DNA of 64,000 nucleotides from Pseudomonadota bacterium (GTDB lineage: Bacteria > Pseudomonadota > Alphaproteobacteria > Sphingomonadales > Sphingomonadaceae). Positions within the stretch are counted from its first letter, which is position 1. Every line of letters starts with the position of its first letter. The translations under genes and the position numbers were made by a program. The stretch lies in the NCBI GenBank assembly GCA_023457895.1, contig JAEXAY010000012.1:2512-66511 (forward strand). Direction: 5' to 3'. Below are positions 1-49,170 of the stretch, in pieces. The notes under the pieces were generated by a model. The model was not told the DNA's origin. It saw nothing but the letters and a program-made list of their open reading frames with translations, and ran no database searches.

Positions 1-971
1 GCCCCGGGGTCGATGAGCCGATCGTGTGGTATGAAGGAGCCGGGACGGCGGACCGCAGGTTCCTGCACGCGGACGAGCGGGGTAGCATTGTTGCGGTGAC
101 GGGTGCCAGCGGCAACCTCATCGGCACCAACCGCTATGACGAATTTGGTATCCCGGCCTCAACCAACATCGGGCGGTTCCAGTATACCGGCCAGATGTGG
201 CTGCCCGAACTCGGGCTCTACTATTACAAAGCGAGAATGTACTCGCCCACCTTGGGACGGTTCATGCAGACAGACCCCATCGGCTATGCCGACGGCATCA
301 ACTGGTACAACTATGTCGGTAGCGATCCAGTGAATTTTACGGATCCAAGCGGGACGCGAGGCTTCAGTAGGTGCCATTCCGTTTACAATTTGGTCGGAGA
401 ATTCACGCTATCACATACTACATGCTATTTCTACGAGATTCCCGATTGGACTGAGTATAGTTACGGAGAACGAGGCGGGGGCGGTGGTGGTCGCGGTACG
501 CCCCGAGGACCAGCCCAACCTCCCGCAGCTTCGCCGCAAAGTGGAAAGGGTAGAAATCCTTACTGTGTTGCTAATGGTGGTCGTGAGGTCAGGGGGCAAG
601 GTCCAAAAACGCTTGATGATGGCGTGGTCACGCTCCATGGTCTTAATTTTGATCTGGCACTAGGAGTTGGTGCGGGAATTACATTCTATCGGTTCAAGGA
701 TTCATATTCAGGCTCTCGGGGCATAATAGCGCTCGGATCGGCTCACGCGGGTGTTTTTGGATCAGTGGGATATACAGCTGGAGTTGCGCCTAATCTACCG
801 GGTCTATTGGGTAATGGATATGCCTATAGAGCGGGCGCGGTTGCTCAGTTTGATTCATCATTCAACGATGATGGCCTCACTGCAATTGAAACCGGTGTAT
901 CAGCCGGTGGTGGCGTGGCAGCGAGCAAAACTAAAGCAAGAATTATCAGTTCAAACATTCCTGATTGTTAG
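1..971 (+). CDS. Rhs/YD-repeat polymorphic toxin, 3' part only (5' end lies left of the window): end of the Rhs core plus a variable C-terminal toxin domain
   Basis: The frame is open from base 3 (..GVDEPIVWYEG..), so the GTG at 24 in the ORF track is not the real start. Rhs core-end signature: RYDEFG..GLYYYKARMYSPTLGRFMQTDPIGYADGINWYNYVGSDPVNFTDPSG, with DPxG at 342-353. The ~200 aa after it are Gly/Ala-rich with no catalytic motif I recognise. G+C visibly drops after ~360. Confidence 0.9.
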   Translation, partial: PGVDEPIVWYEGAGTADRRFLHADERGSIVAVTGASGNLIGTNRYDEFGIPASTNIGRFQYTGQMWLPELGLYYYKARMYSPTLGRFMQTDPIGYADGINWYNYVGSDPVNFTDPSGTRGFSRCHSVYNLVGEFTLSHTTCYFYEIPDWTEYSYGERGGGGGGRGTPRGPAQPPAASPQSGKGRNPYCVANGGREVRGQGPKTLDDGVVTLHGLNFDLALGVGAGITFYRFKDSYSGSRGIIALGSAHAGVFGSVGYTAGVAPNLPGLLGNGYAYRAGAVAQFDSSFNDDGLTAIETGVSAGGGVAASKTKARIISSNIPDC

Positions 972-978
972 TGATGTT

Positions 979-1128
979 ATGATGAGATTAGTTTTCATTT
1001 TGATGTTCATTATCCACTCTATATTCCTAGAGAGGATAGGAAAGTATGCTTTTATATCCTTGCCAGTTTTATTTGTGATTGGCTTGATTGCGTTTGCTCC
1101 ATCTATAACAAAGCGCATTAGGAAGTAG
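979..1128 (+). CDS. Candidate cognate immunity protein, 49 aa with two hydrophobic segments
   Basis: ATG at 979 lies 8 nt after the Rhs stop (969-971). Product is MMRLVFILMFIIHSIFLERIGKYAFISLPVLFVIGLIAFAPSITKRIRK. It shares the low-G+C composition of the toxin tail and sits where Rhs immunity genes are normally found. The longer track ORF (751..1128) overlaps the toxin and is not credible upstream of 979. Confidence 0.5.
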   Translation: MMRLVFILMFIIHSIFLERIGKYAFISLPVLFVIGLIAFAPSITKRIRK

Positions 1129-1162
1129 TGTGGGAACTCTTTCGTCATGCGCCACGCGCCAT

Positions 1163-1338
1163 TGATCTGCCCCCTTCTGAGCCGGTCCATCGACTAAGAT
1201 AGTCGGGACCACGAAGGAGATATTGAATGGCCACGAAGAAGCACACGCCGGAGGAGATTATCGGCAAACTGCGTGAAGCAGAGACTGTGATTGCGCAGGG
1301 CGGCACTGCGCTGGATGCGTGTCGCCGGATCGCGGTTA
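1163..1338 (+). mobile_element. IS3-family (IS407-like) left-end remnant, truncated
   Basis: Terminal sequence TGATCTGCCCCC at 1163 resembles IS407-group inverted repeats (from memory). It is followed by an RBS and an orfA start at 1227. The element is interrupted at TA 1337-1338 and does not resume after the inserted IS630. Confidence 0.55.
1227..1338 (+). pseudogene. IS3-family transposase orfA fragment (first ~37 codons only)
   Basis: MATKKHTPEEIIGKLREAETVIAQGGTALDACRRIAV matches the HTH N-terminus of IS3-family OrfA proteins. The similarity ends exactly at the IS630 insertion point. Confidence 0.7.
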
Positions 1339-2383
1339 GAGCGGTTTTCGACCGATCTGAATCGAAAGGGGATTTCCATGGGGCTGATTTTCTGATTCAG
1401 CATCCTTGCTGGCGAAGGAGGCCAGCATGGATGGCGCTTTCGATGGATTTGCGAGCCCGTGTTCTGGCAGCGATTTCTGAAGGTTCGAGTTGCCGCGCGG
1501 CGGCTTTTCGGTTTGGCGTTGCGCCATCGACAGCGATCCGCTGGCGGGCGCAGCAACTGGCGACCGGAGACTTTGCGCCCAGACCCCAGGGCGGCGACAT
1601 GCGATCCCGCCCGGTCGAGGAGCGCGCGGCGGCCATCCTCGCGATCTGGGAAGCGCGCAGGGACATCACGCTTGAGGAGTTGCGTCTGGCTCTGGCCGGG
1701 GCGGGCCTGATGGTCTCTGTCGCCGGGTTGCATCGCTTCTTCGCGCGCCGGGGCATGACGCGCAAAAAAGACTGGCCATGCCATCGAGCAGGACCGTCTC
1801 GATGTCCTGAGGCAGCGTCGGGAGTGGTTTAAGGGGCAGGTCGATCTGGAACCGGAACGTCTCGTGTTTATCGATGAGACGTGGACAGCAACGAACATGA
1901 CGTGCAGCCATGGCCGCTGTCCGAAAGGCGAGCGGTTGCGGATGGGCTTCCCGCGCGGCCATCGCAAGACCACCACGCTGGTCGCGGGCTTGCGCATGAC
2001 AGGCATGGTTGCATCGATGGTCCTCGACGGCCCGATCAATGGCGACTGGTTCGAAGCCTATGTCGCCCAGGTGCTGATACCGGAGCTGCTGCCCGGCGAT
2101 GTCGTCATCATGGACAATCTGTCGAGCCACAAGCGTGCCTCGGTGCGCGAGCGGATAGAGACCGCGGGCGCAACCCTGTGCTTCCTGCCGCTCTACAGTC
2201 CCGATTTCAACCCGATCGAAAAGGCCTTCTCCCGCCTCAAGGCCATGCTGCGCAAGGCCGGCGAGCGCTCCGTCAGCGGCTCTGGAACCTCATCGGCAAG
2301 CTCGTCGACATCTTCCAAGCTAGACGAATGCGCCAACTACTTCAGATCATGCGGATATGACCCAGAATGATCGAAAATCGCTC
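1339..2383 (+). mobile_element. IS630-family insertion sequence (1045 bp) flanked by a TA target duplication
   Basis: Left end is GAGCGGTTTTCGA (1339-). The reverse complement of the right end is GAGCGATTTTCGA (2383 backwards), matching at 12 of the 13 outermost positions. TA dinucleotides sit at 1337-1338 and 2384-2385, as expected for IS630/Tc1. The element encodes a DDE transposase. Confidence 0.85.
1431..2370 (+). CDS. IS630-family DDE transposase, encoded in two frames joined at an A6G run
   Basis: The N-terminal HTH part (MALSMDLRARVLAAISEGSSCRAAAFRFGVAPSTAIRW..) is in the frame of 1431. The catalytic part (..KKTGHAIEQDRLDVLRQRREWFKGQVDLEPERLVFIDETW..DNLSSHK..YSPDFNPIEKAF) is in the +1 frame, which is open from 1711. 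The switch point is the AAAAAAG run at 1764-1770. An AGGAGG RBS lies at 1416-1421. Confidence 0.8.
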
Positions 2384-44537: not shown

Positions 44538-44882
44538 ATGCATAATGTCACCCCTTTTCCGCTCCCCGCCACAGGGCCTCGCCAGGTCGGCTTCGAGCGT
44601 GAGGAACTGATGCGCATTCTGGACCTCTATGGCCGCATGGTCGCGGCAGGCCATTGGCGCGATTATGCGATGGACTTTGAACGCGATCTCGCGGTTTTCT
44701 CCTGCTTTCGCCGCACCGCCGAACGCCCCGAATACCGCATCGAGAAACGCCCGGCTTTGCGCCAGCGGCAGGGCATGTGGGCGCTGATCGGCGAAGGCGG
44801 CGCGATACTGAAGCGCGGACATGAGCTGGCGGGCGTGCTCGCCCCGATCGAACGCAAATTGCTCAAGATCATCGAAGATTAG
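44538..44882 (+). CDS. DUF2794-like conserved alphaproteobacterial protein
   Basis: VGFEREELMRILDLYGRMVAAGHWRDYAMDF pattern. The family name is from memory. Its stop overlaps the stop of the convergent gene (TTAG at 44879-44882). Confidence 0.7.
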   Translation: MHNVTPFPLPATGPRQVGFEREELMRILDLYGRMVAAGHWRDYAMDFERDLAVFSCFRRTAERPEYRIEKRPALRQRQGMWALIGEGGAILKRGHELAGVLAPIERKLLKIIED

Positions 44883-45925
44883 GCCGCGGACCGGCTCATG
44901 CGCCACTTGGTCCACAAGTGACGCGCGAGCATCATCGGCGGCATGCGCAACAGGTGTGAGCGCAGGTAGAAAAGGAGCCGCAATATTTTGCACCTTTCCT
45001 GCCCCCAGCCATTGCGCGCGAGTAGCCGGCGTTCGACAAGCCGGATAAATATGCCGGCTTCCGGCCAGTTCTCGGGCACGGGCGTGCCATAAAGGCGCGC
45101 GGCGAGCCGGGCGGTGAGATGGAGTTCGTGCAGCAAGCCATGGTGCGCGGCGCGCCCTTCCAGTTGTCGCCACCAGCCGGGATCGGCGGCGCCCTCTTGC
45201 AGCAGGCAGTGAATGTCCCACAGGTTCCGGAGACCCCCCTGAAAGTCCCCGTCGGCCATGAAATGTGCAACCGCGTGGCAGACGCGGTCGGTCGGGGAGA
45301 GGAGGTAGAGTGTGGTGTCTTGCCCGGCCGGAACGGCATCCGCGATCATCGCTTCCGCGTCCGGCCTGGTCCGCGCCGTCAGCGGCAGGATCGTGTGATG
45401 CACGTCGATCATCCGGTCGCGATCGCGGTGGATGAGGGGTGGCAGTTCGTGCATCCATTGCCGGTAATAGTTATCGTCATACGGATCCGATTTGACCCAC
45501 TCCCATCCGGCAGTGATGAGGGCCTGTTCGGCGTCTTGGAGCCGTGCGCGCGGAACCAATATGTCGAGGTCGCCGATCTGGCGTCCTCGCGCTGCGGCGA
45601 GGTTGGCGGCGGCATAGGCTGTCCCTTTGAGCAGGATCGTGCGGATGCCCAACGGCGAGAGGGAGCGGCGGCACATTTCCGCTTCCCATAGCGCGGCGCG
45701 CTGCGCAGCGGCAGCGCCTTCGCGATGATCGGCAAGCAGCGCAGCGACCTCTGCCGGCATCGGCTGATCTCGTACCTGCTCCGCCAGCGTTCCCATCAGC
45801 GCCTCGGCGCGCGCTATCGTGATCAGCCCGGTCCAGTCAGCGACGCCCAACTGGGCGACCGTGGCGGGATCGCGCAAGGCTTGCGTCAACAGACGCGCAT
45901 CGGCGTGGTGGACCGGCGCACTCAT
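44879..45925 (-). CDS. Nucleotidyltransferase-fold protein (NTP_transf_5-like), third gene of the HPr-kinase-related cassette
   Basis: Has the polymerase-beta-type NT motif LLKGTAYAAANLAAARGRQIGDLDILV. Start ATG 45925 forms an ATGA overlap with the kinase stop. Confidence 0.8.
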   Translation of the reverse strand: MSAPVHHADARLLTQALRDPATVAQLGVADWTGLITIARAEALMGTLAEQVRDQPMPAEVAALLADHREGAAAAQRAALWEAEMCRRSLSPLGIRTILLKGTAYAAANLAAARGRQIGDLDILVPRARLQDAEQALITAGWEWVKSDPYDDNYYRQWMHELPPLIHRDRDRMIDVHHTILPLTARTRPDAEAMIADAVPAGQDTTLYLLSPTDRVCHAVAHFMADGDFQGGLRNLWDIHCLLQEGAADPGWWRQLEGRAAHHGLLHELHLTARLAARLYGTPVPENWPEAGIFIRLVERRLLARNGWGQERCKILRLLFYLRSHLLRMPPMMLARHLWTKWRMSRSAA

Positions 45926-46788
45926 GCAAGCGCACTCCATAGATGCTCGACCAGTTCCAGTGCTTCCTCGCCCGACTGGTAATCGATCGCACGCGCTGGG
46001 ACATTGGCGGCAAAGCGCGTGAGGCAGTCATAGCCAGCTTCTCCGAGTGCGACATAATTGGTCGACGCCTGCGTCAGCCTGATGAAGGTTTCCGACGGAG
46101 TCACCGGCCGTATCTCGCGGGCAAAGCCGAAGCGGGGGAACAGCAAAAGTGAAGGGCTTGCTGGTGCTTCCATGCGCGCAATGGCCTGGGCGCGCGGGCG
46201 CAGATGGCGGATATCGCCCTTGGGCGTACCCGTGAGCAAGGGGCCGAACCGCTCCGTAGGCACAAATGACGTCATGGCGGCAATCGCGTCATTCTTGAGG
46301 CTGACGGGACGGGGGAAAGCAAAAGCCTCGCCGTTCGAGGGCGCGATCAAGGTGAATTCGTCGCCCATCAGGCGCCAGCCCTTTTCGCCAAGCAGCGCAG
46401 CGAGGGTGGATTTGCCGCTGCCGCTTTCGCCCGTCATGATGAGCGCACGGCCATCCTTCTCGACTGCGCTCGCATGGAGCAGCAGATGCCGCCGCCAGCC
46501 CAGCGCCATCTGCAGGTTCATCGCCATTTCCGCCGCAAGCAGCCCCTGCGCGAGGGGCAGCGGCGCGGCATCGGGTATCATATAGTCGGCGCGAATGGTG
46601 ATCGATGGCCGGACCCACCGGCGCCAAGGCCGAAATGCTTCGAGCCGGACCGTGAAATCGTGGAAGCCTGTGGAGTTCGCGGCCGGGTAATCGCGATAGA
46701 GCGCGCGCAGCGCGGCGATCGGGCCGGGCCAGTCCGAGCCGATCCGGAAACGTGCGGGGCCGACCTTGATGCCAAACTGATGTCTCAT
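45922..46788 (-). CDS. HPr-kinase-related P-loop kinase (HprK-related kinase A type)
   Basis: LLLHASAVEKDGRALIMTGESGSGKSTLAALLGEKGWRLMGDEF mirrors the HprK C-terminal domain (H..V, P-loop, acidic pair). The P-loop lies at 46405-46431. It overlaps the upstream PqqD-like gene by ATGA. Confidence 0.85.
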   Translation of the reverse strand: MRHQFGIKVGPARFRIGSDWPGPIAALRALYRDYPAANSTGFHDFTVRLEAFRPWRRWVRPSITIRADYMIPDAAPLPLAQGLLAAEMAMNLQMALGWRRHLLLHASAVEKDGRALIMTGESGSGKSTLAALLGEKGWRLMGDEFTLIAPSNGEAFAFPRPVSLKNDAIAAMTSFVPTERFGPLLTGTPKGDIRHLRPRAQAIARMEAPASPSLLLFPRFGFAREIRPVTPSETFIRLTQASTNYVALGEAGYDCLTRFAANVPARAIDYQSGEEALELVEHLWSALA

Positions 46789-47081
46789 GCCGCGCCGTCC
46801 GGCGGGAGCCGCTCGACAAGGCCGAGTACCGCCAGTTCCTCGAGCCGCGCCATGACGCTAGCGATATGATTCTCACCTTCGGCGAGGTCGAATTTGCCTC
46901 TCAGGCGGGAGACGATAGCTTCGGGCGTAAGCACGTCTTCTCCCATCACTTCCAACATTTCCGGAACCGGCATCGCGACGAGATGCGTGGTGCCTGAGCG
47001 CCGGTCGTAAAGCGCGGAAAGCTGGTCGAGCGGGGTCAGGCGATAGCGGGCGAAAGGAAGGGCGCGATAGCGTGCGGACAT
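46785..47081 (-). CDS. PqqD-family small protein (RiPP recognition element-like peptide chaperone)
   Basis: 98 aa. The pattern ..LSALYDRRSGTTHLVAMPVPEMLEVMGEDVLTPEAIVSRLRGKF..VMARLEELAVLGLVE is a PqqD-like winged helix. Confidence 0.75.
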   Translation of the reverse strand: MSARYRALPFARYRLTPLDQLSALYDRRSGTTHLVAMPVPEMLEVMGEDVLTPEAIVSRLRGKFDLAEGENHIASVMARLEELAVLGLVERLPPDGAA

Positions 47082-47119: not shown

Positions 47120-47545
47120 TCAGCTGCGTGGCATCTGGATCGAGGCATAGCAGGTGAAACCGCTCTGTCCCATCTGGAGGCGGCGGATATAGTTCACATA
47201 AGCCTGGCTCTGATCATAGGTCGTGCCAGGGAGCGAGCGGCCATTGATGGCGGCCTTCACATCCTGACCCTTGAATGGCTGCGGTGCGGGCGGAAAGGCC
47301 CCCTGTGTCCCGGCCGGGACCAGCGTCCCATCGGCAGCGATATATTGCCCGGCGCGCGCCGGATCAGGCACCGGGATCTCGCAGTTGAGGATCGACACGG
47401 CGGTATTGGCGAAAGCGGGCTTCACGCTCACCACCATAGAAGCCGAAACCGCGCCAAGCGCCAGCATCTGCCGCCGCGTCGGAACGGCAAGGCCATCGGC
47501 GTTCGTTGATGCTGCTTGCGGATCGCTTTCGGGATGGTCGGTCAT
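47120..47545 (-). CDS. Small Tat-signal exported protein of unknown function (141 aa), first gene of the cassette operon
   Basis: It has a 22-aa n-region, the twin-arginine motif TRRQML, the h-region ALGAVSASMVVSV and an AFA-N cleavage site. The mature part is ~93 aa with 2 Cys and ends ..QMPRS. It lies 38 nt upstream of the PqqD-like gene. Confidence 0.7.
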   Translation of the reverse strand: MTDHPESDPQAASTNADGLAVPTRRQMLALGAVSASMVVSVKPAFANTAVSILNCEIPVPDPARAGQYIAADGTLVPAGTQGAFPPAPQPFKGQDVKAAINGRSLPGTTYDQSQAYVNYIRRLQMGQSGFTCYASIQMPRS

Positions 47546-47607: not shown

Positions 47608-47643
47608 GCCCGCGCCAGTCCCTGATTGGAACATGGCGCGGGC
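47608..47643 (-). other. Perfect 10-bp GC stem-loop between the porin gene and the cassette operon
   Basis: GCCCGCGCCA (47608-47617) pairs with TGGCGCGGGC (47634-47643) across a 16-nt loop. There is no U-tract on either strand. Confidence 0.6.
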
Positions 47644-47663: not shown

Positions 47664-48893
47664 TCAATAGAAGATCTGGAAGCGGAACAGCATCGTGTCG
47701 ACATCATAGTCGCGCGTGCCATCACTCGCCGCGATGATTGCATCCTTATAGCTCAGCCGTCCGTAATTGGCGGAAAAGCGAACCTGCTCGATCGGCGTCC
47801 AGACGAGCGACCCCAATAATGCATCCTGTTTGCCGCCGCGAAAACCGCTGCTGTTGAGATCAAGATGATCATAGCGCACGTTGAGCTGGAGTGCGCCGAA
47901 TCCGCCGCTGCCCAGCGGCTTTTTGGGTTTTACGGTGCCCCAGGCACCGCCCTTGTAGGGGCGTTTGTCGTCGGTGAGGAAGAAACCGGCTTCAGCATAA
48001 CCTCCCCAGAGCGTGGGATTGGCCATATTGGGCACGTCAGGGCGGAGCCAGAAAGCCTCACCGGTAGCGTGAAAGCGCCCCATCACAGCGCCCGCTTCAA
48101 GTCCGTAACCCAGTTCCTTTTCAACCCGGAGCGAGGGCGTCGAAACAAAGCGGGTGTCGGTTGTCCGCAGGACTGGACGAGTTCGATAGCGCATGCCGCT
48201 ATTGGCAAGATCGTTGCGGTCGCGCCAATGCGCGGAAGCCGCCAGATGCAATTGGGTGTCGCCCATCTTGGGTGCCCACACCGCGCGGCCATGAACGCCA
48301 AGGCTGTTGTCCTTGACGTCGTTTAACCCGATCAGCGGCTCGGTCGAAACCCCGCCCTGAAACATCAGATCGCCCTGCTTCAGCGTCGAGGTCAGTGCAA
48401 GGCGGCGAGTAAAACCGAATGCCTGCACGAAGCCCGCGCGCTCGGCAAAGCTGGTATTGAGATCGCTCGTCAAGTCGTCAAGCGACTGGAACACCTTTTG
48501 CTGGCCCGCGGTAATGTTTAGATTCTTGGTGTCATAGGCGACATAGGCGTCGACGAATTCGGGGTCCGAGGTAGCCATGTCGCCCTCGACGCGGGCGCTC
48601 CAGCCGCCGCCAAACTTCGCATCGACCCCGATATAGGCTCGGCGCAATATGTCGTTCCAGCCCATGCCTCCGGCGGTGACATTATCCGGCGGTGAAACCT
48701 TGCCGACATCATATTGGACACGCCAGCGCGGGCGCAGTTCGAACCCGTCCTTTTCGGACTTGGCAGTTTTTTGGGCTGCGGCATCCTCTACCGGTGTAGG
48801 CGTATCAGGAGCGGCGGTACTGGCAGCGGGTGTCGCATGAGCCGTAGCGGGGAGCAGAGCAAGGACGGCGGCTGCGTGGACAAGGCGGGTCAT
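47664..48893 (-). CDS. OprO/OprP-type (phosphate-selective-like) porin
   Basis: Has a signal peptide, RPRWRVQYD and AYIGVDAKFGGGW segments, and a C-terminal FRFQIFY aromatic end typical of outer-membrane beta-barrels. Confidence 0.8.
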   Translation of the reverse strand: MTRLVHAAAVLALLPATAHATPAASTAAPDTPTPVEDAAAQKTAKSEKDGFELRPRWRVQYDVGKVSPPDNVTAGGMGWNDILRRAYIGVDAKFGGGWSARVEGDMATSDPEFVDAYVAYDTKNLNITAGQQKVFQSLDDLTSDLNTSFAERAGFVQAFGFTRRLALTSTLKQGDLMFQGGVSTEPLIGLNDVKDNSLGVHGRAVWAPKMGDTQLHLAASAHWRDRNDLANSGMRYRTRPVLRTTDTRFVSTPSLRVEKELGYGLEAGAVMGRFHATGEAFWLRPDVPNMANPTLWGGYAEAGFFLTDDKRPYKGGAWGTVKPKKPLGSGGFGALQLNVRYDHLDLNSSGFRGGKQDALLGSLVWTPIEQVRFSANYGRLSYKDAIIAASDGTRDYDVDTMLFRFQIFY

Positions 48894-49170
48894 GATTCGG
48901 CAACCCTTTCAACAAGAAGGCGTGGATGGTGGCGACGCCCTATGCGTCAATTATGACAATTATGTTACGTTTATGCGTCGAATTGAGGACGGTGGGTCAA
49001 TCATGCTGGCAAAAAGCCCAAATGCGTTTCTACAATACCTGACTGACTTGGGAGCTTAGCCCCTCGGCGCCGTAACGGCGGTTTACGTAAACGTAATTTG
49101 GTCTTGCGCTGCACCGCAACATAGCTCATCACGATCACCGATACAGCTAATTTCTACGGAGTGTTCTTCC

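Follow-up and report, generated by a model that had tools for sequence, protein, structure and literature searches.

A gene for a protein with a twin-arginine-type leader is the constant partner and candidate substrate gene of the HPr-rel-A kinase/nucleotidyltransferase cassette

We analyzed a stretch of 64,000 nucleotides from a bacterium of the Sphingomonadaceae (GenBank assembly GCA_023457895.1, contig JAEXAY010000012.1, positions 2,512 to 66,511), called the window throughout the text. It contains an open reading frame (ORF) for a 141-amino acid protein with a leader of the twin-arginine translocation (Tat) type, followed by genes for a PqqD-like peptide chaperone, an HprK-related kinase and a nucleotidyltransferase. 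The three genes located 3' of the ORF are the catalogued "HPr-rel-A system" of NCBIfam (TIGR04352, TIGR04353 and PF14907); both curated cut-offs were passed and a PF14907 gene follows. The catalogue entries do not name a substrate. Comparing the sequences of related loci, we found strong support for the 141-amino acid protein as the cognate partner of this cassette and as its sole available substrate candidate. We further lean toward the view that the HPr-rel-A system has a fourth gene, encoding its substrate, and that this gene is the ORF; its product would be modified and then exported via Tat. Across the loci compared, the upstream gene with its twin-arginine (RR) leader is a constant fourth component, and this is what the present analysis adds to the catalogued trio. 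A paper on a TIGR04352, TIGR04353 or PF14907 system of this kind was not found in the literature. The initial annotation of the window had already proposed the protein as a candidate substrate. Of this proposal the partnership with the cassette stood, on the basis of gene neighborhood only, while the roles assigned to the terminal Ser and to the acidic n-region did not.

The connection between precursor gene and cassette was investigated in 61 related genomes, 31 with and 30 without the cassette. Using the single protein sequence as query, 15 of 15 clear homologues were found directly upstream of the HprK_rel_A gene on the same strand. Direct reading of the DNA upstream of the remaining cassettes of the order revealed more divergent proteins of the same design, consisting of an RR motif, a Cys located 5-10 residues past an A-x-A, a hypervariable middle part and [ST]-C-x-x-S near the end. 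A profile was built from 24 order-level precursor sequences (termed A1). It yielded 31 strong matches, all beside a cassette and one of them split across contig ends; the precursor of genome G040 was an extra case recognized by reading the DNA. A precursor homologue was found directly upstream and on the same strand in 31/31 cassette genomes versus 0/30 genomes lacking the cassette, so that the check for co-occurrence suggested in the initial annotation gave a strongly positive result. No full-length orphan copy of the precursor gene was found among the 61 genomes. G002, a genome from the genus of the window, contains neither the precursor gene nor the cassette.

The same arrangement was observed beyond the order. 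In the class sample, the kinase was encoded in 21 of 401 genomes, and the A1 profile, mainly through its first 56 positions (the leader), found a cassette-adjacent ORF in 14 of these 21 versus 3 of the 380 others. In the phylum sample 62 of 401 genomes (about 15%) encoded the kinase. An upstream RR-signal protein of 150-200 amino acids ending in [ST]-C-W-x-S-[FL] was present at 18 of the 30 phylum-level loci examined. As this ending recurs phylum-wide, the T-C-Y-A-S-I of the window is a local variant. The element constant across all loci was the RR leader with a Cys soon after it.

Several variants of the partner gene were encountered. In genome G038 (locus L019) two paralogous precursor genes, at 16-426 (+) and 825-1373 (+), flank the PqqD gene, the second one with an Asn/Gly-rich low-complexity insert. 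The precursor of G040 (L067, 2328-3047) contains an insert of low complexity, duplicated and extremely rich in Asp, but retains S-T-S-C-W-T-S as well as its RR leader and leader-proximal Cys; the kinase of this genome scored 188 bits, just below the NCBIfam cut-off. A second type of partner comprises RR-leader proteins of 190-280 amino acids with several Cys and without the C-terminal C-x-x-S (L053 530-1174, L112 486-1139, L116 594-1166; also L047, L054, L091-L093 and L096), and C-S-(L/V)-S-x-(N/A)-L-S directly follows the signal in L053, L112 and L116. Short peptides of 65-90 amino acids were found as partners at some class-level loci (L051 686-979, L052 717-992, L056 3456-3812). They show a leader of the form RRR(I/V)(I/L)KAAL..P(L/V)ILTLKSGPARA and a core of just 15-25 residues. 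The peptide gene of L056 is located downstream of the nucleotidyltransferase gene, and a gene for a Wza-like exporter upstream of PqqD.

The coordinates of all features of the window are summarized in Table 1.

Table 1. Features of the precursor gene, the cassette and their surroundings in the window (residue numbers refer to the 141-amino acid protein).
Feature	Position	Strand	Basis or remark
Gene for precursor-like protein with Tat-type leader, 141 aa, candidate substrate	47120..47545	(-)	ORF and translation, homologues, adjacency to cassette
Acidic n-region, about residues 1-22; composition kept, sequence and length not	47483..47545	(-)	Pairwise identity, charge survey
Twin-arginine motif, h-region, K42-containing c-region and A-F-A site (residues 23-46), conserved leader/signal segment	47408..47479	(-)	Alignment A1, segment identity
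Cys55, conserved, 9 residues past predicted cleavage site	47381..47383	(-)	Nearly invariant in A1
C-terminal motif S128-G-F-T131-C132-Y-A-S135-I136, with family-wide [ST]-C-x-x-S	47138..47164	(-)	A1, segment identity 0.47
Terminal Ser141	47123..47125	(-)	Not conserved; tail identity 0.09
PqqD-family peptide chaperone (RRE), HPr-rel-A system	46785..47081	(-)	TIGR04353, 51 bits (cut-off 35)
HprK-related kinase A	45922..46788	(-)	TIGR04352, 236.3 bits (cut-off 200)
NTP_transf_5 nucleotidyltransferase	44879..45940	(-)	PF14907, 181 bits; likely true start ATG at 45925
GC stem-loop between porin and precursor genes, 10-bp stem, without U-tract	47608..47643	(-)	Read from sequence
Porin_O_P family porin, upstream same-strand neighbor (context)	47664..48893	(-)	PF07396, 176.7 bits

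The precursor gene is genuine and not a chance ORF, since 1738 homologues of its product were found in the protein database at E<=0.001, nearly all of them unnamed and mostly from Sphingomonadaceae. Searching the protein and seven relatives against the Pfam and NCBIfam models gave no family match. The features listed in the initial annotation (ORF, acidic n-region, TRRQML, A-F-A/N cleavage site, two Cys and terminal Ser) were all confirmed, with C55 and C132 as the two Cys and S141 as the last residue. The length of the mature part, given there as about 93 amino acids, had to be corrected to 95 by recounting from the predicted cleavage site after A44-F-A46 and before N47. The statement that the flanking spacers hold no further small ORF was right: the spacers measure 38 nt to the PqqD-like gene and 118 nt to the upstream porin gene, and no other conserved small ORF was found in or beside the operon. 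In the AlphaFold model of the protein the predicted local distance difference test (pLDDT) score was 83-91 for residues of about 60-120 and below 70 for residues 128-141. From the 5' to the 3' end of the gene the predicted design is a Tat-type leader, a small folded domain (residues of about 55-127), a flexible tail and a short variable end. A Foldseek comparison of the model with the PDB showed no fold relative (best E-value 0.98), and the PDB sequence search returned N-terminal, non-significant matches only, among them the signal of nitrous-oxide reductase (E = 0.1).

The PqqD-like protein was modeled with a pLDDT of 87.7 on a shallow alignment, for which the word-based homologue search gave 4 sequences. 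Its top PDB matches in Foldseek were leader-binding recognition elements (RREs) of peptides that are ribosomally synthesized and modified post-translationally (RiPPs), namely TbiB1 (5v1v, with leader; template modeling (TM) scores 0.63/0.68), LynD (4v1t), the lasso B1 protein (6jx3) and CteB (5why). The match probabilities were 0.99-1.00 at TM scores of about 0.6, with E-values of only 6e-3 to 5e-2. The kinase motifs are intact, with the Walker A sequence GESGSGKST (residue 120) and a GDE sequence (residue 142); the match to HPr kinase structures was weak. The D-x-D motif of the nucleotidyltransferase is intact in the translation as GDLDILV, and a solved homologue of this enzyme was not found. 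Both the PqqD/kinase and the kinase/nucleotidyltransferase junction show ATGA overlaps, the likely start codon of the nucleotidyltransferase overlapping the stop codon of the kinase. All three enzymes lack a signal peptide; any modification must therefore precede export and take place in the cytoplasm.

From these data the following sequence of events is proposed. The PqqD-type RRE protein would bind the conserved RR/hydrophobic leader in the cytoplasm, and not the acidic n-region. The P-loop HprK-like kinase would then phosphorylate a conserved Ser or Thr, most likely S135 or T131, with S51 near Cys55 as an alternative. As with PsmN in pseudomycoidin, this phosphate would serve the NTP_transf_5 enzyme as the attachment point for a hexose or, possibly, for a group derived from a nucleotide. 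We infer this order of kinase and nucleotidyltransferase by analogy with pseudomycoidin. The folded and decorated protein would leave the cell by Tat with cleavage after A-F-A, and a disulfide between Cys55 and Cys132 may finally link the tail with the beginning of the mature protein.

We are aware of the fact that a number of observations weigh against the protein being such a Tat-exported substrate. The support for the partnership is wholly comparative, and the Fisher test for co-occurrence (p = 4e-18) ignores shared ancestry. The conserved Ser is internal, whereas the characterized HprK-like RiPP kinases target a C-terminal Ser. In other clades the cassette is accompanied by RR-leader proteins without the C-terminal motif (C-S-L-S-G-N-L-S type, short peptides). 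The core of a RiPP is expected to be short and unfolded, and here a mature part of 95 amino acids with a confidently modeled domain was found. The Tat-signal model TIGR01409 (cut-off 16.7 bits) did not match the window protein even at E<=10. PsmN and the PF14907 enzyme of the window were likened by family description.

Among the other explanations, the protein might be a co-regulated, Tat-exported partner (in the periplasm or the matrix, for instance), with kinase and nucleotidyltransferase acting on a polysaccharide, a lipid or a protein from another locus. Some class-level cassettes are indeed found in polysaccharide-export loci beside Wza-like genes (L048, L056), and members of other families in this order have the regulatory site of the PEP-CTERM system, described below, in front of the operon. 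We nevertheless consider this unlikely. The chaperone shows the fold of a leader-binding RRE, which favors a peptide or protein as substrate. With a spacer of 38 nt, ATGA overlaps elsewhere and no competing conserved small ORF, the operon offers no other candidate, and apart from the RR-leader gene no neighbor of the cassette stays constant across very different flanks.

Which residue of a candidate substrate would be modified was approached via conservation. The initial annotation had compared the terminal Ser with the phospho-acceptor of paeninodin-type precursors. This assignment did not withstand the comparison: of 120 close homologues only 5, all of them the closest relatives of the window, end in S, versus 71 in R and 42 in G, and the terminal Ser was ruled out as a conserved acceptor. 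C132 and S135 are invariant among the 24 order-level sequences. The invariant Ser of [ST]-C-x-x-S is placed 3-20 residues before the C-terminus and is thus internal; the motif sits in the low-confidence, presumably flexible tail of the AlphaFold model. We therefore regard the internal [ST]-C-x-x-S (T131-C132-Y-A-S135), and not the terminal Ser, as the candidate for the conserved acceptor region. As the partners in other clades lack the C-terminal motif, the acceptor may alternatively lie near the leader-proximal Cys. The protein would then still be the substrate, with the site in the S51/C55 region and the C-terminal motif serving folding or disulfide formation. The Cys 5-10 residues past the cleavage site is the sole feature of the mature part common to all partner types, kept even where the C-terminal motif is missing (L053, L112, L116 and the short peptides of L051 and L052), and the spacing between RR and the first Cys is 29-37 amino acids in 24/24 order-level sequences. 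Furthermore, S51 is invariant in 98 close homologues, and RiPP enzymes frequently work near the leader. At the order level, however, S135 is invariant and S51 is not. For the C-terminal tail the prediction is a flexible, exposed chain, and the HprK-like RiPP kinases known so far target the C-terminal end (PMC6993621, PMC8498205). A site at S51/C55 accordingly has a low probability in our assessment, and S135/T131 remain the preferred residues.

The leader of the candidate substrate was analyzed in the same way. T23-R24-R25-Q-M-L28 is followed by an uncharged stretch of 16 residues (Q26-V41), K42 and A44-F-A46. R24, R25 and G31 are invariant and L28, A32, A44 and A46 nearly invariant in A1, and the c-region is basic in 16 of the 24 aligned sequences. 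The mean pairwise identity was 0.13 for the n-region, 0.46 for the RR/h/c segment, 0.11 for the middle, 0.47 for the C-terminal motif and 0.09 for the final tail. The pattern of RiPP precursors, a conserved leader in front of a variable core, was thereby found (0.46 versus 0.11). The extended acidic n-region had been suggested as the handle for the RRE. Its net charge is negative in about 85% of the members, and acidity itself is a family trait; however, its sequence is not conserved and its length varies from 5 to 58 amino acids. These values make it a poor candidate for a specific handle, and as a sequence-specific handle it was ruled out by conservation when compared to the RR/h/c segment. 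The conserved leader candidate, judged by the alignment, is the RR/hydrophobic segment in its place. In the closest relatives of the window protein (P0003-P0005, L002) the n-regions are swollen to 35-58 residues by Gly/Gln/Asp-rich repeats, a further sign that the n-region is free to vary.

The RR segment might also be a RiPP-type leader merely resembling a Tat signal, with a product that stays in the cytoplasm or is exported otherwise. The missing TIGR01409 match would fit, as would the scores of relatives (13.3 and 8.6 bits, below the cut-off), a conservation exceeding that usual for signal peptides and an acidic n-region atypical of them. Nevertheless, the window protein shows the sequence criterion of a Tat substrate ([ST]-R-R-x-hydrophobic-L, at least 13 uncharged residues and A-x-A), including the invariant RR and a basic residue in the c-region. 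The weak off-target matches of the profile were N-termini of large proteins in other genomes, hit via the signal segment of the profile, and the N-terminus of nitrous-oxide reductase was weakly matched as well. TatC is encoded in the genome (235 bits, above the cut-off, contig C4), and the operon contains no gene for a dedicated exporter or leader protease. Taken together, a leader that is not a Tat signal is improbable, and export of the candidate substrate via Tat is preferred.

The flanking genes differ between loci. The Porin_O_P gene, of the phosphate type, likewise adjoins the operon in the congener G001. The stem-loop between porin and precursor gene has a perfect 10-bp stem (GCCCGCGCCA / TGGCGCGGGC) and a 16-nt loop and was not called as a terminator; as it lacks a U-tract, transcription started at the porin promoter may continue through it. 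Upstream of the porin gene, repeats phased by about 11 nt were seen at 48940-48990 (-) (GACGCATAAAC / GTAACATAATT / GTCATAATTGA / CGCATA), which could be bound as direct repeats by PhoB or another response regulator. At 18 of 20 order-level loci (L071-L076, L078-L089; see also L067 1029-2246 (-)) the operon and a phoR homologue are oriented divergently, pstB lies another 3-5 kb away on the phoR side and a gph-like HAD gene past the nucleotidyltransferase gene. A link to phosphate regulation was rejected, as the search for an E. coli-type Pho box was negative and the neighborhood to phoR is confined to this order; the arrangement was treated as inherited synteny. Such a single ancestral locus between phoR and the gph-like gene would also fit the idea that the whole neighborhood is inherited gene order without functional meaning, but the four-gene block stays intact when the flanks change (the porin in the window and its congener, unrelated flanks at class and phylum level) and gene and cassette are lost together, as in G002, making this explanation very improbable.

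A second regulatory context became visible in other families of the order. At 8 of the 20 order-level loci (L078, L082, L083, L084, L085, L086, L088, L089) a 17-nt motif, TGTCGG-N5-TTTACA, was found 150-265 nt upstream of the precursor gene, with a sigma-54-type -24/-12 promoter (TGGYNY-N5-TTGCW) 70-92 nt after the start of the motif. The motif occurs many times in those genomes, mostly before genes for Sec-signal proteins with PEP-CTERM tails. The bipartite site is absent upstream of the window's own operon and of its porin gene, and the motif is barely enriched in the window's genome. Exosortase (PF09721) was encoded in 31/31 cassette genomes versus 23/30 others, its long-ORF form in 31/31 versus 14/30, and the exosortase gene was located 8-14 kb from the cassette in about 14 genomes. 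In G002 exosortase is missing along with cassette and precursor. We tentatively consider a broader scheme, possible though less likely than not to hold in full: the Tat signal would double as the leader recognized by the RRE, the PqqD-type chaperone would couple phospho-decoration to release into the Tat pathway, and the product would belong to the matrix program of exosortase and PEP-CTERM.

If the 141-amino acid protein is a substrate as proposed, RRE-guided modification would include, besides short peptides, folded proteins exported via Tat, a Tat signal could act as a recognition leader, and a phospho-linked modification would be added to the repertoire of bacterial envelope and matrix proteins. 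The HPr-rel-A trio is defined by curated family models and occurs in a considerable share of the sampled phylum genomes, and the constant, recognizable partner gene makes the system directly testable. For the window, experiments are redirected to S135/T131 and the RR/hydrophobic leader instead of the terminal Ser and the acidic tip.

Compared to known systems, the enzyme logic of the window, with an RRE, an HprK-like kinase and an enzyme of a nucleotidyltransferase family, is common with paeninodin (PadeK) and pseudomycoidin (PsmK and PsmN). In pseudomycoidin a Ser receives its phosphate through the HprK-like kinase PsmK, and PsmN, an enzyme of a nucleotidyltransferase family, attaches one or more hexoses to that phosphate (PMC6993621, PMC8498205); PsmN was placed in a family of uncharacterized nucleotidyltransferases (PMC6993621). 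Unlike lasso systems, the window locus lacks a lasso cyclase and a B2 protease. The B2 protease family PF13471 is absent from the whole genome, and a stray set of lasso-peptide tailoring genes was ruled out on this basis. Compared to lasso precursors, the protein of 141 amino acids has a Tat-type leader and a predicted folded domain, and its conserved Ser is internal and not C-terminal.

For bufferins and other signal-peptide RiPPs, DUF2282 precursors with DUF2063 RRE partners are described, modified in the cytoplasm and acting in the periplasm (PMC11626156, PMC12710340). Bufferins and the system proposed here both involve precursors with an export signal and an RRE-type partner. Differences concern the signal and the enzymes: bufferins use Sec signals and MNIO enzymes, the window a Tat-type signal, itself conserved, together with a kinase and a nucleotidyltransferase. 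The layout of the bipartite site that other families of the order have in front of the precursor operon matches the PrsR/sigma-54 cis-regulatory site of the PEP-CTERM/exosortase system (Haft et al., 2006; PMC1569441). The precursor differs from the proteins of that system by the lack of a PEP-CTERM tail, and the window operon by the lack of the site. The remaining comparison is with the proofreading of Tat substrates. TorD, DmsD and NapD are small cytoplasmic Tat proofreading chaperones, which hold the twin-arginine signal until cofactor insertion is completed. They belong to other fold families, whereas the chaperone of the window has the PqqD/RRE fold and the maturation step would be covalent. 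If the tentative coupling of phospho-decoration to Tat release holds true, the HPr-rel-A system would represent a covalent-modification counterpart of Tat proofreading.
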